From a virus (lineage: Duplodnaviria > Heunggongvirae > Uroviricota > Caudoviricetes), in IMG/VR virus record IMGVR_UViG_3300033068_001610, positions 1 to 64,000 of that record: a DNA stretch of 64,000 nt; one strand, written 5' to 3'. The number at the start of each line of letters is the position of its first letter. Position 1 is the first letter of the stretch. The notes below the pieces were generated by a model. The model was not told where the DNA came from. It saw only the letters and a program-made list of their open reading frames with translations, and ran no database searches. This document shows, one piece after another, positions 1 through 54,400 of this stretch. The position numbers and the translations under genes are program-made.

Positions 1-218
1 TTTACAAAAAGATTAGAATTATCATCATCATCATTATATCCTGTATAACCATAATTTAACCAACTTCCTGGAGACCATTCATAATGTGAATATCTTCTTC
101 TTGGAGTATAGTCCATTTCATAGTCATCATAATGATGTTTAGTTTTAGCTTTTCTCTTTTTGGGTGGAGAAGGAGTATCTACAGATATCCATTCTCCTTT
201 TATATATTCCCAGGCCAT
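1..218 (-). CDS. hypothetical protein (5' part only; continues beyond window start)
   Basis: ATG at 218 lies 2 nt after the TAA of the upstream AAA gene (TAATTATG). Minus-strand frame stays open to nt 1 (MAWEYIKGEWISVDTPSPPKKRKAK...). Confidence 0.4.
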   Translation of the reverse strand, partial: MAWEYIKGEWISVDTPSPPKKRKAKTKHHYDDYEMDYTPRRRYSHYEWSPGSWLNYGYTGYNDDDDNSNLFV

Positions 219-220
219 AA

Positions 221-1546
221 TTATAGTTCTTCATCTTCCATTACAAAAGACACAACAGCTTCTTTTTTAGACAAGCTTTTGTAAATTTCTTTTGCTTTTT
301 TCACTAAATTAGTGTGAACAGCAACAAAATCTTCATTAACTGTCAACATTTGAATTTCTGTTAACTTACTATCAAATTTTTCCATTTGATGTTTAAAATC
401 TTTAACTTCAGCAGTAGAACTCATTTTACATTCTCTCACTTTAGTAATAATTTCTTCTAATTCAACAGAAAGTTGTCTAAATTTGATAGTGGCTTCATAT
501 TTCTTCAATGTAGAAGAAATTAAAGCAGGTTTTTTAGAAAATTCTGCAATAAACATCAATGCTTCAGGGCCACATTTTTCATAAACGTTATTTGCAACAA
601 TTGCAATACGAGGTGAAATTGTGATGCTGTTTTTGTGATATTCTTGTAACAAGAATGGAATGATTGGATCAATTGTTCCTTCACCAAATTTAGCTTCTAA
701 CAATGTGTTATAAGCAATTTCGTTGTAATTATCCCAAATTACATTTAATTCAAGAGGAAATCTTTCCATCAAAGCTCTTAATGAAGAGTTTTTAGCAAAT
801 TCATCACGAGTTTTGTTTGTACAACAAACAATGAATTTAGTTTTAATTGGAAATACTTGACTTCCATTTCTAAATACACCACTTGAGAGAATATCTTTTA
901 GTTGTTCAAGAATAAAATCAGGAGCATCCATCATTTCTTCAAAAATTACATATTCATGATTCATAAATGAATTTTCAACAAGATATTCAATTTTACCTTT
1001 TCCTCCTGGAGCAAATTGAGAAATATCAACACCTCCAAATAATCTGTCAGTATTCATACCAGTACCCATTGTTACAACAAATGGTTCAATGTCTCGTTCT
1101 TCAAAGAAAGCCATTGTTAATTCTGATTTACCATGTCCACCAGGACCATACAAAATTACATTGTTTTTAACTTTCATTCCAATTTCTAAAATACTTATGG
1201 CTTTGTCCATAAATACAAATTCTTCTTTTAAAGAACTTTCAAATTCTGCTACTTGTGGTTTATTAACACTCATTTTTTCTTGTTTTAAGGGAATTTTTAA
1301 ATTTTTTGTTATTTCTGTTATGCCATTATAATCTAATTCAATTTCAATATAATCTGTATTACTAAAAGCCCAGCCAGCAAAATGAAAATCTTTTCCTTGT
1401 TTAGCTGCTTTTTCTGCATCTTTAGGAATATCTGCTCCAAGGTATTCTTGCATATTTTCATGCCAATGAATAGGCACAAACTCATCCATATGATATCCTT
1501 GTTTTTCAAATTCTTCAAATGTTTTGAATCTATATTGTTGAGTCAT
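221..1546 (-). CDS. MoxR-like AAA+ ATPase (AAA_5 type) with N-terminal domain and C-terminal coiled coil
   Basis: Walker A VILYGPGGHGKSE. Walker B/MoxR-like box YVIFEEMMDAPDFILEQLKDIL followed by FIVCCTNKT, resembling the MoxR LLADEINRA..ALLEAM..ATQNP pattern. 441 aa. Confidence 0.7.
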   Translation of the reverse strand: MTQQYRFKTFEEFEKQGYHMDEFVPIHWHENMQEYLGADIPKDAEKAAKQGKDFHFAGWAFSNTDYIEIELDYNGITEITKNLKIPLKQEKMSVNKPQVAEFESSLKEEFVFMDKAISILEIGMKVKNNVILYGPGGHGKSELTMAFFEERDIEPFVVTMGTGMNTDRLFGGVDISQFAPGGKGKIEYLVENSFMNHEYVIFEEMMDAPDFILEQLKDILSSGVFRNGSQVFPIKTKFIVCCTNKTRDEFAKNSSLRALMERFPLELNVIWDNYNEIAYNTLLEAKFGEGTIDPIIPFLLQEYHKNSITISPRIAIVANNVYEKCGPEALMFIAEFSKKPALISSTLKKYEATIKFRQLSVELEEIITKVRECKMSSTAEVKDFKHQMEKFDSKLTEIQMLTVNEDFVAVHTNLVKKAKEIYKSLSKKEAVVSFVMEDEEL

Positions 1547-1592
1547 ATATAAAATATATTAAAAGCCCACCATTACAGTGGGCCTTTGATTA

Positions 1593-3023
1593 CTATTCTT
1601 CGTCATAATAAGTACGAATTCCTTTAAGAGTAGCATTAACAGCATCTTCTTGATAACTTTCATCATAAAGAATACCTTTTAAGGCAAGAGCTAATGCCAT
1701 TTCTTTAGTGACAGATGTATCTTTTGTTTTAGATAATTCAACTTGTCTTAAATAAGATTTGATACAAGTGATAAAACTTGATGCTCTGATAATGGTTTCA
1801 TTACGCAAAATCATATTTGTTTTCACATTTTCAATTATTTCAGCCATAAATGCTGGAGCAATTGATGATTCAGCAATTAATTTGTGTACTGGCTCAAAAT
1901 CTCCTTCAAGTGTTACATCTTGACAAAAGCTTGAAATATATTTTTCAGCTGTTATAGCATCCAAATATGTCATTGAAATGATTGTACCAATTCTTTTACC
2001 TCTTAAAAAGGTAGGCTCAATAAGCTCAAGATGATTAGTAGTAAACAATGAAATTACATTCATGTTTTTAGTATCACCACCATCTAATGTATTCAAAATA
2101 TCTTGAAGAGCAGAATCTCTTTCACCTTTGGTAACTTGGTCAATGTCTTCAACAAATACTAAAATACCATTACCATTTTTATCTAAAGTTTTGGCCATTC
2201 TCAATGTGTCAGCCAATAATTCAGGAGATTTCAAATAGATGGCAGAATAATTGTTTTCAATAGCTTGTTTAGCTAATTTGAATGCCAACAATGTTTTCCC
2301 TGTACCATAAGGTCCTTCTAAAATAGCACCAAATTTAATTGGAATTTTGTTATCTCTACAATGTTGAGGATGAAGAATACGAGCAGTCAATGGACTTAAT
2401 GCTTCTTCTGTTTCTGCAGAAAGAATCATTAATTCTTCATCAATGGAAGATAAATCAAGGATCTTTGGTTGTCCATAGTCATGATTTTGATTAATTTCAA
2501 AAGCTTGACATTTGTAAATAGAATCAGTATGTAACAATTCTATTGTACGATCAACCATTTTATCAATTAAATTTTGAAATTTGAATTGACATTTACCTTT
2601 GATTGATAAATTTTTACTATTTTCATCATAATAGATTTGAATAATAGCTCCTTCTCCCATTCCAGGAAGAGCAATATCACCATAAGGAACTTTTTTTCTT
2701 ACACCACTTGCAAGAGTGATATCAATAGTATTCATACCATCTTTACCTCCTGAAGGTTTTTGAGAATCAGAAACAGTTGAAGCTCCAATAGTTTCTTCAA
2801 TTGAACGATTTAATTGATAAATTCCATCATTACGAAAACAAGGAATAGAATATCTGAAATTGGTCATTCTTTCTGAGTTTTTAATCTCATTTTCAATATA
2901 TACCAATATTTCAGCGTAATCTTTATCGCTACTACCTAATGCAACTAATGTTGTTTTCTTTTCAAGATCCCAAGATGTTTTTACTTCTTTGATCTTTGCT
3001 ACTTCTGTGATTGTTTTTGTCAT
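1593..3023 (-). CDS. classical AAA family ATPase (FtsH/CDC48-type AAA module, no protease domain) with ~225-aa N-terminal domain
   Basis: Walker A GPYGTGKT, Walker B ILVFVEDID, second region of homology TTNHLELIEPTFLRGKR. AAA lid follows; 476 aa. Confidence 0.8.
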   Translation of the reverse strand: MTKTITEVAKIKEVKTSWDLEKKTTLVALGSSDKDYAEILVYIENEIKNSERMTNFRYSIPCFRNDGIYQLNRSIEETIGASTVSDSQKPSGGKDGMNTIDITLASGVRKKVPYGDIALPGMGEGAIIQIYYDENSKNLSIKGKCQFKFQNLIDKMVDRTIELLHTDSIYKCQAFEINQNHDYGQPKILDLSSIDEELMILSAETEEALSPLTARILHPQHCRDNKIPIKFGAILEGPYGTGKTLLAFKLAKQAIENNYSAIYLKSPELLADTLRMAKTLDKNGNGILVFVEDIDQVTKGERDSALQDILNTLDGGDTKNMNVISLFTTNHLELIEPTFLRGKRIGTIISMTYLDAITAEKYISSFCQDVTLEGDFEPVHKLIAESSIAPAFMAEIIENVKTNMILRNETIIRASSFITCIKSYLRQVELSKTKDTSVTKEMALALALKGILYDESYQEDAVNATLKGIRTYYDEE

Positions 3024-3028
3024 TTTAT

Positions 3029-3292
3029 TTATTTATTAAGGGATTTTATTTCTTTTTGTGCTTTAATTAAAAGTTTTTTGAATTCAGTTTCAGTTAATGT
3101 TAGACAACCAAACTCTACCAATCCATGAGACTTGAAAAATGAAAGAGTATCTGTTAATTCAACTTTATCTCTGTCACTTTCAAATGCCATTTTTATGTGT
3201 TTTAATAAAACTCGATGTTTTTTGTAAATAACTTCTTTAGTTATTAAATCAAGTTCAATTGGTAATCCATTTTTACAATAATCTAATATCAT
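3029..3292 (-). CDS. hypothetical protein
   Basis: 87-aa ORF tightly packed between the AAA and SPFH genes in an AT-rich genome. Confidence 0.45.
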   Translation of the reverse strand: MILDYCKNGLPIELDLITKEVIYKKHRVLLKHIKMAFESDRDKVELTDTLSFFKSHGLVEFGCLTLTETEFKKLLIKAQKEIKSLNK

Positions 3293-3343
3293 AACTGAAA
3301 GTATTAAAAAGCTCTGCTATTTCTAACAGAGCTTGTTATTGTT

Positions 3344-4564
3344 TTATTTGTTTTTTAAATCAAGACCAAGATCTTTGGCAGCTTTCGCACTCATAAGTTC
3401 CATAAAATTGAAACCTGCATTTCCTGCAGATCCTCCTCCAGATACATATGTAGGAACAAGTGAACCTTCATAGTTAGCAAAAGCTTCAGCCCAAAATCTT
3501 TGTACTTTTTCATATGTAGCCAACTTTTGAGTTAAAGCTCCATCTGCTTGCATTACAAGACGTTTTTTAGCTGCAATACCTTCACCTTCCAAAATATCTT
3601 TTTGTTTGTTTAAATTGGCTGTTTGTACTGCTAAATTAGCTACATCTTTTGCAGCTTCAGCTTGAGTAACAAGTTTAGATTTAATAACTTCTTGTTCCCA
3701 TTTAGCTTTGGCAGCATTTGCTTCTCCTTGTTTAGCTGTAGTGATAGCATCTTGTTCAGCTCTTTTAGCATTAGCAATGGCAGTTTGAACAGACATTATA
3801 GCTTTTTGTTGACTTTGAATTTGAGCTTCTACTGTTTTATCATATCGAATATCATTAATAGAAATACTATATAAACGAATACCAAATTCTTCAATAGAAG
3901 ATTTTTCTTGTCTATAAGGATTACCTTTAATCATTACAATTTCTACTTTACTAACAGCTTTTTCAGTATTTGTTAATGCATCCACTTCACGTACAGATAT
4001 AGTTTTAGTTTTATATACTCCTTTAGAAGATTGATCTTCAATATAATATATAAGGTCATTTCTTTTTTCTGCATATGATTCTTTAGATGACATCAAAGGT
4101 CCTGTCATAAATATTGATTTAGATATATTAGTATTTACTAATTGTTCTTCAATATTTTCTTGATTTCTATAAGTACTATGAACTTTCTTCATTTTATTTT
4201 CATCTAAAGGAAGATCTATACGAATACTTCCTGATATCCAAGCATGACCACCATCATTAAATTTGACTGGCAAGCTTTTATCATATTCAGTGCCTATATA
4301 TTCTTTTTCTTTAGGTGCAAGAAAATTAATTTGACTAGAACGTTTGTAATGTGTTACTCTTCCAAGTCCTTGCCAAGTTGGCCCTGGTTCATACACCACT
4401 TTAAGATCTCCACTTAAAGATTGAATTACAAGAATTTCTCCTGCATCATTGTCTTCAATTGTATTAAATGATAAAACGACTGCAGCTACTAAAACTAAAA
4501 GTATTAAAGCATACTTTCTAATACCTTTAATCACTGAACTTGATTGATTTTCTTCTGTGTACAT
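3344..4564 (-). CDS. SPFH/band-7 (HflK/flotillin-like) membrane protein
   Basis: N-terminal TM helix YALILLVLVAAVVLSF, central SPFH-like core, C-terminal Ala/Gln/Lys-rich coiled coil (AKRAEQDAITTAKQGEANAAKAKWEQE...) typical of HflK/C and flotillins. 406 aa. Confidence 0.65.
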   Translation of the reverse strand: MYTEENQSSSVIKGIRKYALILLVLVAAVVLSFNTIEDNDAGEILVIQSLSGDLKVVYEPGPTWQGLGRVTHYKRSSQINFLAPKEKEYIGTEYDKSLPVKFNDGGHAWISGSIRIDLPLDENKMKKVHSTYRNQENIEEQLVNTNISKSIFMTGPLMSSKESYAEKRNDLIYYIEDQSSKGVYKTKTISVREVDALTNTEKAVSKVEIVMIKGNPYRQEKSSIEEFGIRLYSISINDIRYDKTVEAQIQSQQKAIMSVQTAIANAKRAEQDAITTAKQGEANAAKAKWEQEVIKSKLVTQAEAAKDVANLAVQTANLNKQKDILEGEGIAAKKRLVMQADGALTQKLATYEKVQRFWAEAFANYEGSLVPTYVSGGGSAGNAGFNFMELMSAKAAKDLGLDLKNK

Positions 4565-4791
4565 TATTTCTCGATGTTTTTGGTAATGTTATTTATTTTT
4601 TGTTGTGTTTTCTTAGTGGCACCTCTGATTGCTTGTTTTTTTTCTTTAAATTCTTTTGATTGTTTTTCCAAATCATCTAAAGATGATTCTGGTTTTCTTA
4701 AACGAAATATATCAGGAATAAGAATATAAAGTAAAACAAATAAAAAGAGCAGGACTAAGCCTGCTCTAATTAAAAACATTGCAGCTGTCAT
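4564..4791 (-). CDS. small membrane protein (N-terminal TM + charged coiled coil)
   Basis: 75 aa. TM AAMFLIRAGLVLLFLFVLLYILIP; ATG overlaps the start of the SPFH gene. Confidence 0.45.
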   Translation of the reverse strand: MTAAMFLIRAGLVLLFLFVLLYILIPDIFRLRKPESSLDDLEKQSKEFKEKKQAIRGATKKTQQKINNITKNIEK

Positions 4792-7650: not shown

Positions 7651-8388
7651 TTAAGTATTTGTATTAGTTATTAAACACATATTGAGAATTGCTTGATGTC
7701 CTGCTCCTAATGATGTAGCTGATTTAATTGAACCATCTTTCATTGTAATATTAAAATCACAATCAAGTAAATCAACATTAATTTCAGCCATGTTTTTAAA
7801 AACATCATCATTATCAGAAATAGTATTCAAGCTTGATAATATTTTTTCATCAAATTTATATGGCATATTTGCTACTAATCCTTCAATAGTTTGAATATCA
7901 TATAATTTGAACATCTCAGATAATTTCATTATCTTTTCTTCATTTGAACCACCAAATGATTTTCTAATTTGTAGATACATTTTGATACCAGTAAATAGTC
8001 TAAATTGAGAAGACATATATATCACTTTAGTTGGAATTAAATTATCTATAGCATTAAATTGAATAAATGAACATTTACCTGTTTCATCTAATTCTATTTC
8101 AACACTGGCTCCTGAAGAATAAGTAAATTTTATTTCTCCAACAATAAAATTATCAAAACAATGTGAGAAAATTTCATCACATACTAGTTTTGAATCATGT
8201 TCATTGTCAAATATTCTAAAATTTATTACACTTGTTACAGCATAAACCATTACATTAATAAATGATTTACCTACACCATTCTTACCTGTTAACATAGTAA
8301 GAGCATTAACATTCATCTCCACTGCTTTAAAAGCAATTGGAGATGAAAGATTTAATGAAATTGTTTTAACACTACCTAATCCTTGCAT
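7651..8388 (-). CDS. ABC/AAA_21-type ATPase N-terminal part (Walker A + signature-like motif), ends before Walker B
   Basis: RecF/SMC-like N-terminus ISLNLSSPIAFKAVEMNVNALTMLTGKNGVGKS. Ends SLGAGHQAILNMCLITNTNT*, an LSGGQ-like signature, with no Walker B. Confidence 0.55.
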   Translation of the reverse strand: MQGLGSVKTISLNLSSPIAFKAVEMNVNALTMLTGKNGVGKSFINVMVYAVTSVINFRIFDNEHDSKLVCDEIFSHCFDNFIVGEIKFTYSSGASVEIELDETGKCSFIQFNAIDNLIPTKVIYMSSQFRLFTGIKMYLQIRKSFGGSNEEKIMKLSEMFKLYDIQTIEGLVANMPYKFDEKILSSLNTISDNDDVFKNMAEINVDLLDCDFNITMKDGSIKSATSLGAGHQAILNMCLITNTNT

Positions 8389-23028: not shown

Positions 23029-23101
23029 TGCGTGGTAGAGCAGTTGGTAGCTCGTGAGACTCATAATCTCAAGGCCATGGGTTCGAGTCCCATTCACGCT
23101 A
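23029..23101 (+). tRNA. tRNA with CAU anticodon (Met, or Ile2 if lysidine-modified)
   Basis: Cloverleaf read by eye: acceptor TGCGTGG/TCACGCT, U8, D-arm GAGC-AGTTGGTA-GCTC, anticodon arm TGAGA-CTCATAA-TCTCA, variable AGGCC, T-arm ATGGG-TTCGAGT-CCCAT, discriminator A. U1:U72 mismatch. Confidence 0.8.
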
Positions 23102-23134
23102 CTAAGTATTAAACCAATTATTAAACAACTACAT

Positions 23135-23584
23135 GTGAGTAAAAAAGAACAAATCCTAATCCTTATTAGTGAGGGAAAATCTGCAAAAGAAATTTCAACA
23201 CTTTTAAATTGTAATACAGCTTTGATTTATTATTACACTAATCATAATAAAAATTTGATTAAATATAAAGAAAAAAGAAAAGATGAATTATTTAAGAAAA
23301 GTCAACAATTAAGTACAAATAAAATTAAACTTAGAAATAGAAGAATAGTTTTAGAATATTTACAAGAACATCCTTGTATAGATTGTGGAAACACAGATAT
23401 TAGAGTACTAGAATTTGACCATGTAAGAGGAAATAAAATTGATTCTGTTTCTGTAGGTGTAAAAGATTCTTGGTCTGTTATTAAATTAATGAAAGAAATT
23501 GATAAATGTGAAATACGCTGTGCAAATTGTCATAAGATAGTTACAGATGAAAGAAGACAAATAAATAAAACCAATAATAACTAA
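23135..23584 (+). CDS. HNH homing endonuclease with N-terminal HTH
   Basis: HPCIDCGNTDIRVLEFDHVRGNKID...CEIRCANCHKIV is a classic HNH/zinc motif. N-terminal LISEGKSAKEISTLLNCNTALIYYY is HTH-like. No ATG before the domain, so a GTG start at 23135 is proposed; the listed ORF start 23054 runs through the tRNA. Confidence 0.7.
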   Translation: MSKKEQILILISEGKSAKEISTLLNCNTALIYYYTNHNKNLIKYKEKRKDELFKKSQQLSTNKIKLRNRRIVLEYLQEHPCIDCGNTDIRVLEFDHVRGNKIDSVSVGVKDSWSVIKLMKEIDKCEIRCANCHKIVTDERRQINKTNNN

Positions 23585-42607: not shown

Positions 42608-45532
42608 ATGAAAAATCAAATTTTAAAACACACAGGATTAACGGAGAAACAATTCTATGCTAAATACAAAACTCAAAAAGATTTTGAAAAAAGCAAAGAA
42701 GGAAAATCTTTTAAAGCTCAATATGGTGCTACTATGGGGCCACAACAACAGCCTCAGGGATATGTTAACCCTAATGGATATCAAAACTATCCTAGTTTGA
42801 TGAATAATTATCAAATAAAGAATATACAGTTTCCAAAACCTGATACAAACTATGACCCAAATGATATTGACCCTATTCCTGTAAATCCTAATTATGGAAA
42901 GAAACAACAACAGGCTAGTGCTAATTATCAAGATAGTTCTATGTATCAAGCTATTGGAGATTATTCTACTATGGATCCTGGGGAGAAAAGAAAAATAAAT
43001 CCTATGGAAGGAATTCCTATAATAGGAGGGCTGGCAAAAGCATTTTCTATGCATAAAGAACAAAAAAAGCAATTGCAAAAAGAAAGACAATCTTATGCTG
43101 TGCTAGGAGTACAAGAACAAGTATCTAATCTTACACCAGAAAGAATAGATAATAAATGGGTAACTCCTTGGTTAAACCCTACATCTTCTAATACTCTACA
43201 TCCTGCTAAAGGAACAGGGTACACAGCTCTTTCAAAAAATGGAAATAAAGTGAGAGGTAAAAAAGCTTTTGCAGGATTTAATATGGGGGGAGGGGGAGCC
43301 TCAAGTACTGGTTTTGGTGGACAAATGGGATTTGATGGACAACAAATGATGGGAGGAATGTCTCAGACACTTGAAGCAAGATCTGCAGGGGGTGCAGGTG
43401 GTGGAGCTATAGGGAGTGTTTTTGGTCCAGGTGGTCAAATGGTAGGAGCACTTGTTGGTGATGCTTTAGATAAAAATCCAGAGAGAATTCTTGCTCAACA
43501 AAATGCAAATCAACAAAGACTTGAAAATATTATTACTAACTATGGTTATAAAAATTTGCACCAAGGTCAGTTTAGAGCTAACACAAGAAATGGTGGTAAT
43601 ATAGATAAAGCTAGAATGGGTGGTAATTTTAAATCACCTTATCAATCTCCAAGTGAAGAGGGAATGATTCCTTATGAAAATGGTGGAAGAACTGCTTTTA
43701 ATGGAGATATGCAAGTTGATAATGGAGTGCTAGAACCAATAGCATATAATCCTCATCTTCCTGGGACAGGTATAACTTATAAGTTTAATGGTCCTTCTCA
43801 TGATGATGGTGGTATACCTACTCAGTATGGTGGTACTAAAATAGAAACTGAAGGATTGGAAACAGTGAGAGAATCTAGTAATGGTTCAGAATTATCTGCA
43901 CAAATATTAGGTGATATGGTTGTTAGTGCTCCTAATGCTAAATTACTTGGTGATGATAAGTTTGCTGGAATGAAGTTTAAAAATATTGATAAAAAATTAT
44001 CTTATCAAACAACTTCTATAAATAAAAATTTAAACAAGACTACTGAAGCTATTAATTCTCTAGAAGTTAATGATGATTTTGACAAACTTAGATTACAAAC
44101 TCTAAAACTAACATTAGAAGGAAGTAATAAAAAACTTGCTGACATAGCTAAGACACAAACCAACTTAGGAAATATGCAGGATGCTATTCATGAAGTTGCT
44201 GATATTCATGGACTTAAACCAGCTGAACTAGCTAAGGGAAAACTAAAACCTAATACAGATAAATCAATGATGAGTAAATATGGTGCTAGTATTGAGAAAG
44301 CACAAGAAGGGAAAAAAGTACCAAAATTTTCTGAAAATTATGATGAAAATAAAGTTTATGAGAATATTGCTAAAACTGAAGGAGCATTAGACTACACTGG
44401 TATAGGAAAAAGTCAAGAACCTAATTTTAATACAGAAGAAAATTATAAAAAATATTTGGAAAAAGTTGAAAGGATATTTAAAAATCCTGAAAATGTAAAG
44501 ATGTTGGTTGATAGGGCAAAAAATTTTAGTGGTAATGACTGGAAAGATGTTAGGGCTCAAATTAATAAAGGTAGAACATATGAAGAACAAGCTGCTATAG
44601 TTAAAAAATTGGCAACTGATTCAAAACCAGGTCCTTATCATACATTAGTAGATAGTTTTGAAGAAGGAGAAACATCTATTACACCAATAACTCCTGTTAC
44701 TCCTGCTGCTAAAGCAACTGTTGCTGATGAAAAAACTCCAGATACAGAAGCTATTCCTTACAAAAGAAGTTGGGTAGCTGATGTATATAATGAGGTGTTA
44801 CCATATTTACGTAGAAGTGATAAAGAACCTTTAGATATAAATCAATTATCTGGAGAGTTATATTCTATGGCTAACAACCAATTGGAACCTGTTCAAGCAC
44901 AATTATATCAACCAGATCTTGCTACTCCTTATGGTGTATCATATCAGGATATAAGAAATGCAAATCAGTCTGATTATATTAGTGGTCAAAGAATGGCAGG
45001 GTATAATCCTGCAGCACAGTCTGTTCTTAATGCACAAAAGTATGCAGCTAATGCAAGTACTTATGGACAAGAGTTTAGAGAGAATCAAGGTAGATATGAT
45101 CAAACATTTGATGCTAATAGAAACTTGTTAAATCAAGCTAAATTGACAAATCTTAATATATTAGATAAACAATATGAAAGACAAGCCATGGCTAAATCCA
45201 ATACTAAGGAAGCTACACAATTGGCATTTAATTCTATAAGTGATAAGTATGCTAAAAAACAATTAGAAAACAGACAATTAGGCATCCTAGAGAATACATA
45301 TAATTACAGATATGACAAGGAAGGTCGTGCTGTTAATTTAAATCCTTTATTTCAACCTAATATTCCTACAGTGGGAAGTAAGTCTGGTACACAAAAACAA
45401 GTTCCAGTGTATGATTCTGAAGGAAATATTGACCATTATCAATTAGAAGAAATACAAACTGCAAAATTTGGTAAATCTATTTCCAAACTTTCAAGAAATG
45501 GTAGTCTTGTTAAAGCTGCCAAAAATCTATAA
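42608..45532 (+). CDS. large virion protein (974 aa) with Q/N/P-rich and Gly-rich low-complexity regions
   Basis: MGGGGASSTGFGGQMGFDGQQMMGGM...GGAGGGAIGSVFGPGGQ. Long stop-free ORF. Confidence 0.5.
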   Translation: MKNQILKHTGLTEKQFYAKYKTQKDFEKSKEGKSFKAQYGATMGPQQQPQGYVNPNGYQNYPSLMNNYQIKNIQFPKPDTNYDPNDIDPIPVNPNYGKKQQQASANYQDSSMYQAIGDYSTMDPGEKRKINPMEGIPIIGGLAKAFSMHKEQKKQLQKERQSYAVLGVQEQVSNLTPERIDNKWVTPWLNPTSSNTLHPAKGTGYTALSKNGNKVRGKKAFAGFNMGGGGASSTGFGGQMGFDGQQMMGGMSQTLEARSAGGAGGGAIGSVFGPGGQMVGALVGDALDKNPERILAQQNANQQRLENIITNYGYKNLHQGQFRANTRNGGNIDKARMGGNFKSPYQSPSEEGMIPYENGGRTAFNGDMQVDNGVLEPIAYNPHLPGTGITYKFNGPSHDDGGIPTQYGGTKIETEGLETVRESSNGSELSAQILGDMVVSAPNAKLLGDDKFAGMKFKNIDKKLSYQTTSINKNLNKTTEAINSLEVNDDFDKLRLQTLKLTLEGSNKKLADIAKTQTNLGNMQDAIHEVADIHGLKPAELAKGKLKPNTDKSMMSKYGASIEKAQEGKKVPKFSENYDENKVYENIAKTEGALDYTGIGKSQEPNFNTEENYKKYLEKVERIFKNPENVKMLVDRAKNFSGNDWKDVRAQINKGRTYEEQAAIVKKLATDSKPGPYHTLVDSFEEGETSITPITPVTPAAKATVADEKTPDTEAIPYKRSWVADVYNEVLPYLRRSDKEPLDINQLSGELYSMANNQLEPVQAQLYQPDLATPYGVSYQDIRNANQSDYISGQRMAGYNPAAQSVLNAQKYAANASTYGQEFRENQGRYDQTFDANRNLLNQAKLTNLNILDKQYERQAMAKSNTKEATQLAFNSISDKYAKKQLENRQLGILENTYNYRYDKEGRAVNLNPLFQPNIPTVGSKSGTQKQVPVYDSEGNIDHYQLEEIQTAKFGKSISKLSRNGSLVKAAKNL

Positions 45533-45600: not shown

Positions 45601-45604
45601 TTTG
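45574..45604 (+). promoter_or_regulatory. Bacteroidetes-type promoter (TTG - 20 nt - TACATTTG)
   Basis: TAnnTTTG match at 45597-45604 with TTG 20 nt upstream. First ATG with sensible spacing is 45641. Confidence 0.3.
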
Positions 45605-45640
45605 CTAACCACATGTACAACATGCACTAAAAATAAGACT

Positions 45641-48409
45641 ATGGCCTCATGGACTGACAAAGCCCCTCAATTTAATCCTTATGTACAACAACTGCCTGTA
45701 GAACTAATGGCACAAGTTGGGCAACAGAAGCAAAAACAATATGATGAAGGGGTACAAAAAATTCAAACCAACATTGACAATATTGCTGGGCTTGATATAG
45801 GGAGAGATGTAGATAAAGTATATTTACAATCCAAACTTAATCAACTTGGTAATAATCTAAAATCAGTAGCTGCTGGAGATTTTTCTAATTTTCAGTTAGT
45901 TAACACTGTCAATGGTATGACTAATCAGTTAGTTAAAGATAGTATTGTGCAAACTGCTGTTATGTCAACTGCTAATGACAGAAAACAAACAGCTCAAATG
46001 GAAGCTGATAAAAAAGATGGAAAACTTACTCCTCATGCTGAATATAATTATCAATTAAAAAGAAGTGCTTATTATAACAATTCTGAACTGACTGATAAAG
46101 ATGGCAACCCTGTATCATTCAATGGGAAGTATACTCCTTCCTGGGATATTGATAAAAATATGTTGGAAGCAATCAAAGCTGTTGGTGATAGTGAATGGAG
46201 TGCTGACAATGTATTTAAAATGGTTAATGGGCAAATTGCCAAAGACCCTAAAACAGGAGCCCCTATCTATTCTGATTATGCAATTAGAGAAAAGAAAAAA
46301 GGAAAATTTAGTGAAAATGTAGCTGCTGCCATTGATGGTGTGTTAGCTAGACCTGAGGCTTCCCAAGAATTGGCGATGCGTGGTGTATACAATTACAGAG
46401 GCAGAGATAACATTGAAGACTTTGTTCAAGAATATGAAACAATAAAAAATAAAACTATTGCTAAATTAGAAGTAAATAAACTTGACTTTATGGAAAAAGT
46501 AGCAAATGCTACTACCAAAGAGGAAAAACTTAAATATCAAGAAGTTGTTACTGCTATTGATTCTAGAATTGAAGGAACAAAACAAGATGCTGCTTTAAAA
46601 GAAAGTGAAGCTTTACAATATACTAATGTTGATTCATATAAGGCTGCTTTAGAAACAATGAGAGTTAGAAATAACTATATGTTAAGTGGTGTTACAGAAA
46701 AAACTTCTCTTGAAGTGATTGAAAATATTCCATGGAAAGCACAAAGACAAGTTTTAGAAGAAGAACGTAAATGGAAAATGGATCTTGATTCTTCTAGTAG
46801 AGGCTGGGCTAATGTAAATATTGCAAGAGCAAATTTAGCTAGAGAAGATGAGAAATGGAAATATGATCCAAATAATCCTAATAATGTATTACCTCCAACT
46901 GAAACTGCATTACCAATGGGTAATACTTTTCAAAGCTTACATGGAGACTTACTTAATGCTTCTAATCAAGCAGAAAGTGTTTTAGATGCTACAAAATTTA
47001 ATATTGTATCAGAGTATCTATCTGCTATTAATTTTGGTAATGGAAAAAAATTAACACAAGCAGAAGTTCAAGCAGGTATTAAATCATATGAAAAAAAGAT
47101 GCCTGGGTTTATAGACAATTATTATAAAAAAGCTAAAGAAGTTATTAAAAATGAAAAGCTTGCTTCAAGTCCTTTATATTCTAGATTAATGTCAGCTCTT
47201 CCTACAGCAACTGCTGCTGAAAATGAGGTGAATAGACTTGGTATTTTCACTACTAACATGAATAAATCTGAAGGAGTTGTTGCTTCAGGAGGAAAAGAAG
47301 TTGATATTGCTGGAATATCTAAAACATTTAAACCTTTTGAAATTGAGTATTTACCATTAAGTAATTGGAGTGCAACAAATTTTGGTGATGCTCCAAAAGT
47401 GAAAAAAATAGTTAGTGCTCAAGATGCTTTAGATATAGGAATTATTGCTGCTAATGAAGGAGGTTTAAAAGGAATGTGGAAATCTTTGTTTTCTTCTGAC
47501 CAAGAAAAACAAACATATAATCAAGCTAAAGAAAGACTAGAAAATAAATTTGATTTACCTGCTGATGAACTTTTAAATGTTGTACGTCCTACAGGAAATT
47601 TAGCAAGAATGGCTGGAGTTCCAATTAATACTGGGATGAATCCTCAATTGAAAAATGTAATAGATGTTGTAAATAGTGAAAAATTTAATAATGTATTAAA
47701 AGCTAAAGAAGAATATTTAAAAACACACTCATGGAGTAATCAACCTTTGTCATATAATGTATATGGAGAAAATATGAAAGGAACAGAAAGAACTTCTGTA
47801 GATGACAGGGTTAAAGAAGTTTTAAATGTTTTAAAAGATGCTAATGGAGGTTTAGAAGATTTTAATAGATTGTATACTGACCCTAAAAATTTCACTGCTC
47901 AGATATCTGTAGACAGAGGTTCTATTTTTTCTCCTAAAGAAGATTTCAAATTAAATTTATATGATAAAGGGGGTATGGTAAAATCTATTCCTATTAGTAA
48001 AGAATATGCTGATTATATAAAAAATGAAGAAATCAAATTGCCTATTAGACCTTCTGATGCTGTAGAAAGAATACAAGTTAATGGAACAACAACCAACTCT
48101 GCAGGACTTCCCCCTATGCATCCAGATGCATATCAGGGAGCTATGATACCAGAAACATATTTTGCTCAAAAATTTAATACTACAAAAGTATTAGGAGCTG
48201 AGGTTGTTAAAAGTCCAACAGGAAAATATAATGCTTATCTTTATACAATAGATCCAAAATCTAATGATACAATTGGTATTCCAATAAAAAATAATAAAGG
48301 AGATCTTTACCCTGCAGATTTTGATAATGTAGATATAGCAACACAATTTTTAATAAAAGATATAAATAGTAAAGCCTATCTTGAGGCATTAATAAATAAT
48401 GGTTTATAA
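45641..48409 (+). CDS. large virion protein (start at MASWTDK; 922 aa)
   Basis: Listed ORF starts at 45602 inside the promoter/terminator. The internal Met at 45641 fits better. Confidence 0.5.
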   Translation: MASWTDKAPQFNPYVQQLPVELMAQVGQQKQKQYDEGVQKIQTNIDNIAGLDIGRDVDKVYLQSKLNQLGNNLKSVAAGDFSNFQLVNTVNGMTNQLVKDSIVQTAVMSTANDRKQTAQMEADKKDGKLTPHAEYNYQLKRSAYYNNSELTDKDGNPVSFNGKYTPSWDIDKNMLEAIKAVGDSEWSADNVFKMVNGQIAKDPKTGAPIYSDYAIREKKKGKFSENVAAAIDGVLARPEASQELAMRGVYNYRGRDNIEDFVQEYETIKNKTIAKLEVNKLDFMEKVANATTKEEKLKYQEVVTAIDSRIEGTKQDAALKESEALQYTNVDSYKAALETMRVRNNYMLSGVTEKTSLEVIENIPWKAQRQVLEEERKWKMDLDSSSRGWANVNIARANLAREDEKWKYDPNNPNNVLPPTETALPMGNTFQSLHGDLLNASNQAESVLDATKFNIVSEYLSAINFGNGKKLTQAEVQAGIKSYEKKMPGFIDNYYKKAKEVIKNEKLASSPLYSRLMSALPTATAAENEVNRLGIFTTNMNKSEGVVASGGKEVDIAGISKTFKPFEIEYLPLSNWSATNFGDAPKVKKIVSAQDALDIGIIAANEGGLKGMWKSLFSSDQEKQTYNQAKERLENKFDLPADELLNVVRPTGNLARMAGVPINTGMNPQLKNVIDVVNSEKFNNVLKAKEEYLKTHSWSNQPLSYNVYGENMKGTERTSVDDRVKEVLNVLKDANGGLEDFNRLYTDPKNFTAQISVDRGSIFSPKEDFKLNLYDKGGMVKSIPISKEYADYIKNEEIKLPIRPSDAVERIQVNGTTTNSAGLPPMHPDAYQGAMIPETYFAQKFNTTKVLGAEVVKSPTGKYNAYLYTIDPKSNDTIGIPIKNNKGDLYPADFDNVDIATQFLIKDINSKAYLEALINNGL

Positions 48410-51400
48410 TGGAAGAAGAAGAATTATTACCTAAAGAAGATTTAAATTTATTAAACCCACTAACTTTGACTCCATCTCCAGCTACTACTGGATATGATGC
48501 ATTTAAAGTGTGGGCAGGGGAACGTATGAATAATTATGGAGAAGTAAAATTAGATCTTGGTCAACTTCCTCAAGGTGATTCTGGTAGTTCCAGTGGTTCT
48601 ACATATAGCTCTAAAAATGGTAAAACCAATACTATTGCTGATGATATTGCAGCTGCAAATAAACGTGCTGATCAAGTAGATAGTACTAAATTTGCAATTA
48701 AAAGTAGCGAAATTTCTCCTAGATATAATCGTACTTATAAAGGACTTGATAATGAAGAACTTTATGCTCAAACACAAACTACTGGTCAAAAAGCTTACAA
48801 TGGTGTAGCTAAGATGGTAGGTACTGCAGCAACCACTTTTGTTAATGGTACTGCAGGTTTGGTATATGGTATTAATGAAATGTCCAAAACAGGAGAACTT
48901 TCTTCTTTTTATAATAATGATCTTGCCAACTACCTTAATAATGTAAACAAAGGTATGGAAGATACCTATGCACATTATAAAACAAAACGAGAACTAGATG
49001 GATCTTGGTGGGAACCTAGTAATTTATTTACAGCAAACTTTTTGTTTGACAATGTAATTAAAAATCTTGGTTTTTCTTTAGGTGCAATGGGAGCAGGGTT
49101 TGCTTGGGGTGGGGCTATTAAAGCTTTGGGACTTACAGGGAGACTTATGGCTACTGGAGAAAAATGGGCTGCTGCTGCAGATACTGCATTAGGAGAAGCA
49201 ACTACTTTGGTAGATGTTCAAAGACTAGGAACCACAACTTCTAAGTTAGAAAAATTATGGCAATCTGCAAAAGTGTCAACAGGAACAGGATTGATGAAAA
49301 CAGATCAATTTATCACTGCTGCTTTTGGAACATTTGGTGAAGCAGGTATAGAAGCCTTAAACAATACACATCAATTCAGAGATGACATGATTGCTAAATA
49401 TACAGCAAGCCATGGTTATGCTCCTGATAAAGAAGACTTACAAGAAATAAATGATTATGCACAACAAGTAGGTGACTGGAGCTTTAAGCTTAATACAGCT
49501 TTGCTTACAGCAACTAACTATGTTCAGCTTCCTAAAATTTTTGCTTCTTCTTTTAAAGGAGAAAAATCTATTGTTAATGGTATTGCAAGAACAGCAGAAG
49601 GATATGTAGAGGCTCTTCCTCAAAAAGGATTTGGTAAAATGATTTATAAAGCAGGTCATATTGCAAGTCTTGGATTTAATACTGCAGAAGCTTTTGAAGA
49701 AGGAGCACAATTTGCTATTCAAACAGGAACACAAAACTATTTTGATAGAAAATTTAACAACCAACAAGTTGATGGTATTGATGATGGTTTATTGTATGGT
49801 GTAAAAGAAGCTCTAACTACTGATGAAGGTTTATTAAATATCTTTACTGGTGGTTTTGCTGGTGCTTTACAATCTTCTGGTATAGTTGGAATTAAAAAAG
49901 GGCTTCCTACTATAGGACAAACTGGTAAGATTGGACAAAGAGGATGGACTGGTTATGGTGGAAAAGAAGGAAAATTAAGAACAGAAGCCATAAACTCTTT
50001 CAATGAATCAAAAATTCAAGACAAACTTAAAGAGATTTCTGACAATATAAATGCATCTGCTCAAATTCAACAAGAGAGAGAAGTTGCTATACGACAAGGA
50101 GACATATTGGAAGCTAAAGATTTAGAGCTCGATTATGCACATTCATTTATTGCACCTAGAGTAAAATATGGAGCTAAACAATTTATTGATGATGAGATAA
50201 CAGATCTCAAAGAAAGAGCAATAAATGATTTCATAGAACTTCAAGCTTCTGGAATTGCTTTTAAAGGAGATACTAAAGAAACTTTCTTGGCTAGATTAAA
50301 CAATATACAAGAACATGCTGATCATGTTGAGAAACTTTATGCTGCTGCTGAGATTAAATATAAAGGTTTAATTAATAAAGATACAGGAGAAAGAGCATAT
50401 TCTGATGAAGTGATAGATAAACTTGTTTATGCAGGGGCTAAAATTATGGATTATGATAAACGTATTCCACAACTAAATGAGAGTCTTGCATTAGCAGGGA
50501 TACCTACACAATTGATAATGGATGATATCCTGGCTAATGATATTCCATCTAAGGAAGCATTAACTGAAGCTGTTGAAAAAATCAAGGCTTTAAGTCTTAT
50601 GAATGAAGATGATCTTATCAGAGATTTGTCTGACATTGCTGAAATAGCAGCCAGAAGAAATTTATTCATCAAAGAATATAAAGACATCAAAAGAAATCCT
50701 GAAAAATATGAACCAGTTAAACCTGTTAAATCAGCAGACAAAAAAGCAAAACAATCTGTTGTTATTAAAACAAAAGGAGGAGATCAAGAAATTGAAATTG
50801 GTGAAGAATATTATTTAGGAGCTATAGCAAGTAAAGATGCAAATGACAAAGATGTATTTCATAGTCCTCTTGTAAAAATTGTTGGTGTAAATGAAGATGG
50901 TTCTTTACAACTTCTTGATGTTAAAACTAATAAAATTACAAATGTTACACCTGAACAATTAAAAACATACACATTACAAAAATCTAGTGAAGTTTCTGAA
51001 ATTGATAAATGGTTACTTGCCAATGCTAATTTAACTTTTACACATAGAGGATTAAGAGATAAAGCAGGAAAGTTTAGAGAAGGTATTATTAAAAACTACC
51101 CTAAAAAAGGACTTGTATTTATTTATGTTAATGAAGCAGGAAAAAAAGTAACTATTCCTATTAGACAAGAACAACTTGTTCCTAAACCTGGATCAAAATA
51201 TAAACAAGGGATAATTGCTCCTTCAGCAGAACAAACAGAATCTTTTCAAAAAACTTTGCAACAAGTATTTGGTAAAAAGGTTGAGTCAACTATAGACCAA
51301 ATAGATGAAAGAAATAACTATTTAGCTGAATTACATGAAGAAGGAATTAAACGTATTGATGAAATAAATAAACAACTTGAAACTAATAAACAAACATTAG

Positions 51401-54400
51401 AAAATAAAGCAAAAGAACTTGCTGAGAAAACTAATGATCTTACATATACTAAAAAAGGTACATTAAGAAAAGGAGGCTTTACAGCCATCCAAAATGCTAT
51501 CAATAGTATCAATACTGTAATAAACAATTTAGAGGCACAGAATGAAGAATTAGCTATACAAAAAGAGGAATTAGAATACACTGTTCCTTTCTATCAAGAG
51601 ATTATTGATTCATTGGAAGAATTTCCTGAAGAAAATAGTGGCTTAATAAACAAAATGAAATCACAAATTAAAGTGGTTGAAGATCTTATTATTGTCACTC
51701 AGGATACTATTACCATTACTGAACGTTTAATTAAACAGGCTCATGAATTATATGACAATGCTGTAAAAGCTATTGAAAGATTTATTCAACAAATTAAAAA
51801 AAATAACCCAGATCTTCCTACAATTTTCATTGATGAGTTTCAAGAAATGAATGAAAAATTCTTGGGAGAAGAAGGAGCTAGACAACTTGTAGAAAATAGA
51901 CAAGGTTTTGCAGGAAGAATTGTACAGTTTCAAGCAGACATAGCATCATTTACAGATGAAGTTAATCTTCCAAAAATGGAAGAGAGAACAAAAGGACTAG
52001 TACAAGATCTTCAAGATTTAGCTACAGGGTTAGAAGATTTAAAAAGAGAAAACAACAAAAGAAAAGAAATCTTGGAAGGGTTTCAACAATTTGTTGATGC
52101 TCTTGAACTTAGAGTTAAAGAAGAAGCTAGGATTAATAATGATCCTAAGGCAAAAGCTTCCTTGATACAAACACAAGATAAGAAGACTATTCAAACTGCA
52201 GACAGAGAAAGTAATGCAGATTTTGAACCTACACCTAAAAAACCTACACATATTATTCCTGTAGCCACTATGGGTATTGATAGAGGAAAACCTCATCAAA
52301 CAAGAGCAAATAATTTTGGTATTAATCTTCATTCTTTTCCTAATAGAAAAGAGATTCGTGGTGTTTATATAACAGCTAAAAATGCAGGACCTTATATTAG
52401 CATTATTGATGAATTGGTTCTTTCTGCAGACAGTGAAATAGACAGAGATCAAATTATAGCTTTAGTTATGTTTGATACTGATGGTAATTTAGTAGGAGAA
52501 GATGGTCAACCTATTGAAGACAATTTTGCACAAACTGCTATATATCAAGTAATGCCTGATGCTACCCTATCTTGGAAAGGAGATTATGAAGGTGATACTT
52601 CTATGTTTAGAAAAGGTACTGATACTAAAGTTAAAGAAGCTGTAATAGCACAATACACTAAAGATAGAGAAAGAATATTATCATCAGAAAATTTTGAAGA
52701 ACCTCATACAATTGATGCTTCTTTTGGTAGACCTGTGTTTGAAAGAGATGAAGCAAATGAAATTGATTATAATGCTAGAAACTCTGTACAAGATGCAGGA
52801 TTAATTACTAATGATCAATTATTATCTGGACAAGTTGTGTCTGTTGCTACTAGTGTACAACCTGCAGAACAAGGACTTGTATCTTACATGAATGCTTTTG
52901 GTAAAGTGTTTCTTAGACTGACTAATGGTTTAGTTCCATTACAAAATAGAAAACATTCTAAACAAGAAGCAGAAACTATTTTTAATGCAATTTATATACT
53001 ATCTGAAAATCTATTAGATCCTAAAGAAGGTATTAATAGTGATAAATCTGTAGCTGTATTACAATATTTAAAATCTGTTGTTTATTGGGGTATTCCAGTT
53101 GATCCTGCTGGAAAAAGAAAAGCCACTGGATATAACAGTATTTTCTTTGAAGAAGATGAAGCTACAGGAAGATTGATGCTTACTATTTCCAATAAAGGAA
53201 ATGACGTTATATTTACACCAAGAGAACTTACTCGTAATAGAGGAGAAATCATAGAGCTTATTCAAACATTACATAGTAATGTGAATTCTGCTATGGTTAA
53301 AAATATTAACGAACCATACGAACAATTCGTATCTTTAACAGAAACTGGAGAGATAGAAACAATCACATGGCCTAATTACCAAGCTTACCTCATTTCTGAT
53401 AAAGCTCCTAATGAAAATGGGGAACTTACTGAAGAAAGAAAAGATGAAATTCCTTTAACTACAATAATGCGTAAGGTGGATCCTGAAGCTAAAGTGGTTA
53501 ACAGAACAGATATTTATTTTTATACTACTGATAATGTAGATGATTATGCTTTTGCTGAGGTGGCCAAAAGAACTACAGGTAAAAAGAAAAAAATCACTGC
53601 AGGGAAACTTGATACTGAGGAAGATACAGAAGGAAGAACTACTATTAAAATGGTAGAGACAAACATCACTAAAATTTTAAAAGGATTTAAAACTACTTTC
53701 TTGAGAGAGAGTATGGACAATATTGATATTGAAGAAGGAGAATCTAAGATAGTAAACTTTGGTGGTAAAGATTTTAAAGTGACCAACAAAGGGTATTTAT
53801 CTATCAAAGAAGCTGGTGGAGTTAAAAAAATTGTTAAATCAGAAGGATATTATAAAGCAGAAAATATTAAATATGCTCCTACACTTGCCTGGTTAAAAGG
53901 TAAAGGTAAAATGTTTGTGTTTGAAATTGAAGATATTGGAGCTGAACAAGAAACTTTTGAAGAAGAAACTGAGGGTGCTTGGGTATATGATGGTGAAACT
54001 CCCAATATATTTATAGATGGTAGAGACAAACAAGTTACTTTCACTATTGAAACAGGAGTTAATGAACAAAATTTTCAAGAAAAAATTGTTATTCTTGATG
54101 TTGAAGATGGTAAAGAAGCAGTAGACTATGTTAAAAAAGTAATGGGCTTAGAAGATGAAGAAGGTGATGATGAAGCTAATTTAGATAGAAAGCATGCAGA
54201 AGCTGTTGAATTATTAAAAGAAAAATTACAAGCTGACATCTTTAACAATATGCCTATTGAAGTTCCTTCTAAAAAAACTGCTTCAACTAAAAAGAAAGGT
54301 GGGTTTAATCCATTTGCTGCAGGGTCTGGATTTAATCAAACTAAACAAGAAGAAGAAGTAGAAGAAGATGAGGAAGAAGAAACTCCTAAAGAGAAAAAAG

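Follow-up and report, generated by a model that had tools for sequence, protein, structure and literature searches.

The window analyzed here, which comprises the first 64,000 nucleotides (nt) of the IMG/VR virus record IMGVR_UViG_3300033068_001610, carries at its left edge a set of leftward-transcribed genes that encode an SPFH (Band-7) membrane protein (SPFH406), a classical-clade AAA ATPase (AAA476) and a MoxR-like ATPase (MoxR441). An earlier note, made from the sequence alone, had taken the SPFH and AAA proteins for a pair that works in the manner of HflKC and FtsH. Our analysis points instead to three independent two-gene accessory cassettes: TM75 with SPFH406, p87 with AAA476, and MoxR441 with a VWA gene. 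We assign this reading a probability of roughly 0.65. The genes are viewed as separate cassettes rather than as one machine because each protein has its own conserved partner, and the cassettes mostly occur apart from one another elsewhere. The reading builds on the domain identities and folds of the proteins, the conservation of their partners, the variable arrangement of the cassettes in relatives, and hairpins that lie between cassettes. All open reading frames (ORFs) that the note had placed on the minus strand, including an 87-amino-acid (aa) gene between SPFH and AAA, are present at those positions (Table 1).

SPFH406 is a member of the SPFH superfamily and, as modeled, has the anchor, SPFH fold and long coiled coil of the cage-forming members. 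Residues 41-268 match Pfam Band_7 (PF01145) with an E-value of 9.8e-11 and a score of 42.5 bits, above the cut-off of 23.6, and the protein belongs with phrog_11908 in the PHROG collection (E=1e-53). The AlphaFold2 (AF2) model, with a pLDDT confidence score of 78, consists of a transmembrane (TM) helix (residues 9-35), an SPFH domain (36-241), a single helix of 120 residues (243-363) and a further C-terminal helix after this coiled coil. Foldseek matched the model to HflK/C, erlin1/2, prohibitin, flotillin, QmcA-YbbJ, stomatin and vault, with E-values down to 3e-9 and a probability of 1.0 for HflK/C, erlin, prohibitin, flotillin, QmcA and stomatin. A fold search was required for this comparison, as a profile built from four SPFH proteins found no match among PDB sequences. 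Thus, the Band_7 score and the fold matches bear out the description of the 406-aa protein as a TM-anchored SPFH protein. It has no match to the HflK or HflC models of NCBIfam. SPFH406 is the single Band_7 ORF among the proteins examined between positions 221 and 6104, and relatives also carry one SPFH gene per locus.

The constant partner of SPFH406 is a small membrane protein. We collected loci with SPFH406 relatives from viruses (79 loci) and from genomes or metagenome-assembled genomes (80 loci, with neighbors counted in 77), and viewed relatives' loci to 8 kb on either side of each gene. A small single-pass TM protein is encoded directly upstream of SPFH in most of the 79 viral loci and in 61 of the 77 genome loci. 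Its length is typically 57 to 110 aa, and the gap to the SPFH gene is 0 to 50 nt. In the window, the stop codon of TM75 overlaps the SPFH406 start codon in the sequence TAATG. The 75-aa gene therefore precedes SPFH, and does not follow it as had been stated, although its product was recognized correctly as a small TM protein. The TM segment is followed by about 50 charged residues that look helical by sequence. An iterative hidden Markov model (HMM) search seeded by the window TM75 alone recovered 95 of 109 distinct upstream proteins. The same model hit only one of the 772 other small ORFs of these loci, and that ORF looks like a displaced true member. A terminator-like hairpin with a T-run at 4746-4767 (minus strand) lies inside the TM75 coding sequence, within the codons of the hydrophobic helix, and probably occurs there by chance.

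The TM and SPFH pair is not restricted to the window's lineage. SPFH proteins of crAss001 (gp91), of the T4-like phages 44RR, Aeh1 and RB43, and of the T5-like phage pVp-1 share 29-36% identity with SPFH406 over 72-91% of the length, and a small TM ORF precedes all of them. Unlike the window, these phages have no AAA or MoxR gene near SPFH. The crAss001-type small partner is not reached by the TM75 HMM. The pair also resides on the complete Flavipsychrobacter chromosome OZ246011.1 (L190, 5579-7167), where its neighbors encode a TPR histidine kinase, type IX secretion system cargo proteins and an ECF sigma factor, and the region viewed has no phage genes. Therefore, it is also a cellular module of the probable host phylum, Bacteroidota. 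The phage cassette probably derives from this host module, or the reverse.

In its gene arrangement the pair resembles SPFH-NfeD pairs such as QmcA-YbbJ (PDB 8z5g), because SPFH406 is coupled to an adjacent, co-oriented gene for a small membrane protein and the pair is widely conserved. The orientation of QmcA has been described, as have QmcA-YbbJ and SPFH-NfeD operons (PMC13086221). Unlike the partner proteins in those operons, TM75 has one TM segment with a charged helical tail and no NfeD (OB-fold) domain. A profile search gave no NfeD match for TM75 even at E<=1, and NfeD identity is ruled out on this basis.

AAA476 begins with an N-domain of about 200 aa, which is followed by one AAA module and by helices at the C-terminus. 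It matches phrog_10440 (E=2e-56), and its fold is closest to classical-clade (PF00004) members. The Walker A motif (GPYGTGKT), sensor-1 (N330) and the Arg fingers (R341 and R344) are invariant in family alignments A2 and A3 and align with the corresponding Cdc48 motifs. No Peptidase_M41 match was found with Pfam, and the NCBIfam FtsH models score only 22-28 bits against cut-offs of 600 and 1008. Thus, profile and fold evidence agree with the description of this protein as a classical AAA ATPase that lacks the M41 protease. The best profile and fold matches do not fall among clamp loaders or DnaC-type helicase loaders, and both identities were rejected. AAA476 contains no TM segment, as its maximum hydropathy over 19 residues is 1.09, compared with 2.46 for the SPFH anchor; the hydropathy scan likewise gave no hydrophobic segment in p87, MoxR441 or cc96.

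Two features set AAA476 apart from Cdc48. Its Walker B motif, VFVEDID, has Glu-Asp where Cdc48 has Asp-Glu, and pore-loop-1 is missing. Both HMMER alignments to Cdc48 leave a gap of 5-7 residues opposite the pore-loop-1 sequences (MWYGE and KMAGES), and in the structural model strand 259-264 runs directly into helix 267-276. Where strand beta2 meets helix alpha2, the family consensus has no aromatic-hydrophobic-Gly motif. The Glu-Asp Walker B and the missing loop are invariant features of the family down to 26% identity, including in homologues from N4-like and Gordonia phages. Because pore-loop-1 is absent, threading or extraction of substrates by AAA476 is unlikely, which argues against the suggestion that it is an unfoldase.

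The gene that accompanies AAA476 encodes p87, a protein with no family match and with a conserved GCLT motif near its C-terminus. The sample for this side of the locus consisted of 80 viral AAA loci and five contigs from an exact protein look-up, and the constancy of p87 was judged over about 60 loci. Nearly all AAA loci, down to an AAA identity of 35%, have an ORF of 79-132 aa ahead of the AAA gene; this ORF usually overlaps the AAA gene and otherwise ends within about 15 nt of it. The p87 stop and the AAA476 start of the window lie 5 nt apart. The phage LR756500 also has a p87-like upstream ORF. An iterative HMM seeded by p87 reached 40 of 41 upstream ORFs and only one of 406 decoys, which is a p87 displaced by an inserted gene.

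By comparison, the other neighbors of p87-AAA vary and include an adenylosuccinate-synthetase-like gene, a split DNA ligase, a helicase and DUF7788. MoxR or VWA proteins were considered as recurrent AAA partners in other lineages and rejected, since the upstream genes of 306-384 aa are adenylosuccinate-synthetase-like and the others are ligase, helicase or DUF7788 genes. Adenylosuccinate-synthetase-like genes lie just upstream of p87-AAA in the human-gut phage contigs L128 (6279-7433) and L144 (6347-7414), and these might encode PurZ-type enzymes for 2-aminoadenine genomes. In LR756500 (L004, 6438-9550), an NAD-dependent DNA ligase is apparently split in two ORFs by a DUF7487/TnsA-like endonuclease gene, with the adenylation domain in the first half and the OB and zinc-finger domains in the second. 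An Acb2_Tad1_hairpin gene is directly upstream of p87-AAA in L091 (9353-9712), and a Tad2-like gene lies 2 kb downstream of it in L088 (11165-11788). Because these genes resemble anti-defense sponges, p87-AAA is suggested to reside in counter-defense or accessory regions. Membership of the window genes in a known defense system was rejected, as PADLOC detected only a partial AAA-domain similarity of AAA476 to IetA (1.6e-9, residues 317-445). The same search gave no match for SPFH406, p87 or cc96, and only a marginal one for TM75 (PDLC00706, "2TM effector"; E=0.0068, 14.2 bits).

MoxR441 matches Pfam bpMoxR (E=1e-14) and AAA_5 (E=3e-8), and RavA is its nearest solved relative in PDB (5e-6), all of which fits the MoxR/AAA_5 class to which the 441-aa protein had been assigned. 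Its score against the NCBIfam RavA model is far below cut-off. The protein is extended by about 100 aa at its N-terminus and ends in a helical tail. The earlier description ended with this gene, but a further gene begins at position 218 and leaves the window. Its product, encoded at 3-218, is 64% identical over 42 aa (E=5e-16) to the N-terminus of a 469-aa protein encoded after MoxR in L086. The L086 protein contains the metal-ion-dependent adhesion site (MIDAS) motif LLDYSGSMSDS and matches Pfam VWA_CoxE (9e-4) and VWA_2 weakly. A protein of 460-469 aa accompanies MoxR in relatives. Judging from this homology, MoxR441 and the gene at the window edge are a MoxR-VWA pair. The pair is similar to RavA-ViaA and to the ternary bpMoxR systems, in which an AAA_5/bpMoxR ATPase is followed by a MIDAS-type VWA protein. 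It differs from them in that MoxR441 is very divergent, no beta-propeller third component is seen, a phage encodes the system, and the window contains only part of the VWA gene. The 367-aa MoxR-like proteins that neighbor SPFH in the L043/L051 lineage were rejected as MoxR441 orthologues because they have only the P-loop in common with it.

The distribution of these genes across genomes indicates that they are separable. An AAA476-like protein is encoded within about 5 kb of SPFH and on the same strand in 8 of the 79 viral SPFH loci. AAA adjoins the TM-SPFH pair in only four, all from close relatives of the window phage, and among the 77 genome loci there is one AAA476-like neighbor. When AAA loci are grouped by how closely their AAA protein matches that of the window, 9 of the 18 loci with at least 60% identity have SPFH within 8 kb, in each case adjacent. 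It lies within 8 kb in 8 of 36 loci at 52-60% identity (2.5-7 kb away and non-adjacent), and in none of 32 below 52%. Even among close relatives, L093, L098, L101, L103 and L120 have p87-AAA with complete flanks but lack a nearby SPFH gene. LR756500, whose SPFH protein is the closest among GenBank phages (51% identity), carries its SPFH and AAA genes 184 kb apart. Cultured phages may have either gene: crAss001 and T5-like vibriophages carry SPFH without AAA, and N4-like and Gordonia phages carry AAA without SPFH. Thus, only some members of the window's own lineage have SPFH and AAA side by side.

The order of the cassettes also varies. The window, L086 and L090 have cc96-TM-SPFH-p87-AAA, whereas L091 and L010-13 have p87-AAA-TM-SPFH. 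MoxR is 8-10 kb from the other cassettes in L090 and L091, and in L091 a 460-aa partner gene is beside it. Homologues of cc96 precede TM-SPFH in the window and in L018, but precede p87-AAA in L010-L013, L103 and L120. The distribution of its homologues thus suggests that cc96 is a conserved left flank of a site at which either cassette may follow, and its membership in either module is only putative.

Terminator-like hairpins separate the cassettes. The hairpin at 3305-3338 has a predicted free energy of -15.7 kcal/mol (z=-4.6), and none of 200 shuffled sequences was as good. It is kept in L086 with a change from G.U to A-U, and L090 has a different hairpin with a U-run after SPFH. The hairpin at 1561-1587 (-15.8 kcal/mol, z=-3.8) has counterparts in L086 and L091, in which a hairpin and U-run of other sequence occupy the matching site. 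Because such hairpins follow both SPFH and AAA, the genes, although co-oriented in a leftward operon as reported, are not uniformly "tightly coupled."

The window is from a phage, because genes for a terminase (TerL), portal and major capsid protein are present at 15.2-22.9 kb. TerL has Cellulophaga phi4:1-like and crAss-like phages as its nearest relatives, and by this measure the source is a crAss-like phage. The first 5.1 kb of the minus strand contain six complete ORFs head to tail, and the seventh exits at the window edge. The order of transcription is cc96, TM75, SPFH406, p87, AAA476, MoxR441 and the partial gene 218-3. The locus is in the leftward-transcribed arm, which is the early/middle arm and points away from the structural genes. 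A PHROG search of leftward-arm ORFs upstream of the locus (6-13 kb) gave no informative match.

Table 1. Genes and hairpins at the left edge of the window
Feature	Position	Strand	Basis
VWA gene, 5' part (72 codons), downstream of MoxR and cut by the window edge	3..218	-	homology to L086 protein
MoxR441, MoxR/RavA-like AAA+ ATPase, 441 aa	221..1546	-	Pfam and PDB matches
Terminator-like hairpin, 11-12 bp stem then U-run, directly past the AAA stop	1561..1587	-	hairpin scan, folding
AAA476, soluble classical-clade AAA ATPase, 476 aa	1593..3023	-	profiles, fold model
p87, 87 aa, AAA partner (adaptor or client)	3029..3292	-	conserved position, HMM
Terminator-like hairpin, 11-bp stem, GAAA loop, UUUUU, between SPFH stop and p87 start	3305..3338	-	folding
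SPFH406, SPFH/Band-7 protein, 406 aa	3344..4564	-	Pfam, AF2, Foldseek
TM75, single-pass membrane protein, 75 aa, SPFH partner	4564..4791	-	conserved position, HMM
cc96, helical protein, 96 aa	4796..5086	-	homologues flank either cassette

Several features elsewhere in the window are also of interest. A 245-aa ORF (7651-8388, minus strand) has the P-loop-like motif LTGKNGVGKSF, with no Pfam match and only a marginal PHROG match. An ORF of 4487 aa (48409-61872, plus strand) is preceded by ORFs of 974 and 935 aa (42608-45532 and 45602-48409). None of the three has a Pfam match, and the 974- and 935-aa ORFs also lack a PHROG match. The three ORFs follow the structural block, which is where the genomes of crAss-like and N4-like podophages encode giant virion or ejection proteins. 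A tRNA-Met gene (CAT; 23029-23102, plus strand) is located within the structural module and overlaps the 5' end of a GTG-started ORF (23054-23584), so the start of that ORF is doubtful.

We infer the topology, oligomeric state, mechanism and biological role of each cassette as follows. Lys and Arg residues are richer before the TM segment, and acidic residues after it, in 53 of 68 SPFH homologues, with the reverse in 2 of 68; the flanks in SPFH406 are KGIRK and EDNDAGE. SPFH406 is therefore predicted to have its N-terminus inside and its SPFH domain in the periplasm, which is the orientation of HflK/C and opposite to that of the cytoplasm-facing QmcA. Of 49 small TM partners, 35 have an excess of Lys and Arg behind the TM segment, and the charged tail of TM75 is probably cytoplasmic. 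TM75 and SPFH406 are a cognate pair that recurs in many large phages as well as on Bacteroidota chromosomes. If it behaves like the SPFH assemblies with solved structures, SPFH406 should use its long coiled coil to oligomerize, and the resulting ring or cage would be anchored in the inner membrane with the SPFH domain on the periplasmic side, according to the charge distribution. TM75 would then lie in or at the enclosed membrane patch with its tail in the cytoplasm, a position held by NfeD proteins in bacterial SPFH operons. The likely task of the pair is to fence off or organize an inner-membrane patch during infection. Candidate roles, in no order of preference, include modulation of host FtsH or other envelope proteins, membrane integrity, lysis timing and exclusion of superinfecting phages.

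AAA476 and p87 constitute a strictly conserved pair with translational coupling. The ATPase is soluble by prediction and probably hexameric, with intact Arg fingers and sensor-1. It may remodel or chaperone a specific client, either p87 or something that p87 brings, and its action would be more like that of YjoB or Bcs1 than like threading of the FtsH or p97 type. YjoB of Bacillus subtilis (PDB 7w42) and mitochondrial Bcs1 are single-ring classical AAA proteins with a chamber-forming N-domain, and YjoB provides a precedent for such a mode (PMC9565160). AAA476 differs from them in its low identity (about 18%), its p87 partner, its Glu-Asp Walker B motif and its lack of pore-loop-1, and the likeness of the N-domains is putative. 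MoxR441 with its VWA protein is a canonical MoxR-VWA chaperone-like pair.

An alternative to which we give a small but appreciable chance is that TM75 and SPFH406 mimic host HflK/C. They would build a cage facing the periplasm, and by capturing or re-tuning host FtsH this cage would save phage membrane or regulatory proteins from degradation, independently of the phage AAA protein. HflK/C is known to tune the access of FtsH to membrane substrates (PMC12048511). The predicted topology is the same as that of HflK/C, SPFH406 has full-length structural similarity to HflK/C in FtsH complexes (PDB 7vhq, 9cz2 and 7wi3), and every listed cultured phage with an SPFH gene infects a Gram-negative host. 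However, the similarity is no better than that to erlin, prohibitin, flotillin or QmcA. The missing NCBIfam HflK/HflC match and the presence of one SPFH gene rather than an HflK and HflC pair also speak against mimicry. Moreover, Bacteroidota have a cellular orthologue that is paired with the same small partner and presumably serves a role of its own.

It is improbable that SPFH406 and AAA476 form one membrane machine, in which the scaffold recruits a protease-less unfoldase or segregase as an analogue of HflKC-FtsH, prohibitin/m-AAA or erlin/p97. SPFH406 does share with the Escherichia coli HflK/HflC-FtsH system (PDB 7vhq, 7wi3 and 9cz2) an N-terminal anchor, a long coiled coil, a predicted periplasm-facing domain and an AAA gene nearby. 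Only one small gene separates SPFH from AAA in the window, and half of the closest loci keep the two adjacent, in both orders. FtsH reaches the SPFH cage through TM helices and a periplasmic domain, and AAA476 has neither. Unlike that system, the window phage has one SPFH gene, its AAA protein also lacks the M41 protease and pore-loop-1, and the SPFH-AAA linkage is not conserved among relatives. Each of the two proteins has a different and far more constant partner, and a hairpin separates the cassettes. Most genomes with one gene do not have the other nearby, as LR756500 and the close relatives with p87-AAA alone illustrate, and the cellular TM and SPFH pair has no AAA neighbor. An SPFH domain predicted to be periplasmic and a soluble AAA protein that is unlikely to thread are poorly matched to an HflKC-FtsH-like unit, and so the pairing proposed in the earlier note is not upheld.

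Some observations weigh against the view that the cassettes are independent. They stay adjacent in two orders within the window lineage, perhaps because selection favors their linkage. The cassettes may also share a single long transcript in which the hairpins act as partial terminators or as RNA-stability elements. The topology of SPFH406 is read from the positive-inside rule only. In addition, we compared 150 proteins of at least 100 aa encoded within 2.5 kb of SPFH, from 41 non-redundant viral loci, with 150 proteins encoded in the distal flanks of these loci. Near SPFH, PF00004 outnumbers every other Pfam family, with 6 of 150 proximal versus 1 of 150 distal proteins, a difference that is not significant (one-sided p ~0.06). 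The six neighbors represent at most three lineages and at least two AAA+ types; from their coordinates they appear to be the p87-linked AAA proteins of L010/L011, a shorter relative (349 aa) in L048, and proteins of 368 aa in L051/L053/L057 that are MoxR-like. This excess is only a hint, and it leaves a small chance of cooperation between the proteins.

Such cooperation could take the form of docking. In some lineages, the TM75 tail might dock the p87-AAA ring, or elsewhere a MoxR-type ATPase, under the membrane patch fenced by SPFH. The adjacency in both orders within the window lineage and the PF00004 excess point in this direction, and the predicted cytoplasmic tail of TM75 could in principle bridge to a soluble ATPase, as YdjI with YdjG/H recruits PspA (PMC8581546). 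We nevertheless regard docking as doubtful. If it does occur, it would amount to a protease-free, phage-specific station for membrane remodeling or protein extraction, without precedent in viruses.

A similarly low chance attaches to control of the envelope or of lysis, in which TM75 and SPFH would scaffold or restrain holin or other lysis proteins or block DNA entry by superinfecting phages: crAss001 gp91 has small membrane-protein genes around it and a peptidoglycan hydrolase gene (gp89) two genes away, pVp-1 has a holin and endolysin about 6 kb upstream, glucosaminidase is among the proximal neighbor families (2 of 150), and TM75-like proteins share the generic holin traits of small size, one TM segment and a charged C-terminal tail, yet Pfam and PHROG scans recognized no lysis gene near the cassette in the window, lysin neighbors are rare, and the same pair is on a bacterial chromosome outside any prophage.

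The existence of phage SPFH genes is not new, because they were listed in T4-like genomes in 2006 (PMC1524935) and the crAss001 genome already annotates one (gp91); phage SPFH proteins are also discussed speculatively in a 2026 Crassvirales preprint. The earlier statement that the module is uncharacterized in phages holds to the extent that our literature searches found genome annotations only, with no functional work on phage SPFH proteins or on the phage AAA family described here. The results give no sign of a new kind of machine. The variant features are a non-NfeD partner for SPFH and a classical AAA protein that lacks pore-loop-1 and comes with an obligatory small partner.

Should the modular reading hold, its value lies mainly in annotation, as it defines two conserved phage gene pairs, a small TM protein with SPFH and p87 with a classical AAA that has no pore loop, and so names a concrete partner in each. 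It also cautions that genes lying side by side in a phage accessory region need not encode a complex. SPFH cages are under active structural study, and the TM and SPFH pair is found both in Bacteroidota cells and in the cultivable crAss001 (gp91 with gp92 or a neighboring small ORF). A cage that a virus encodes together with a non-NfeD partner would make a minimal and tractable system.

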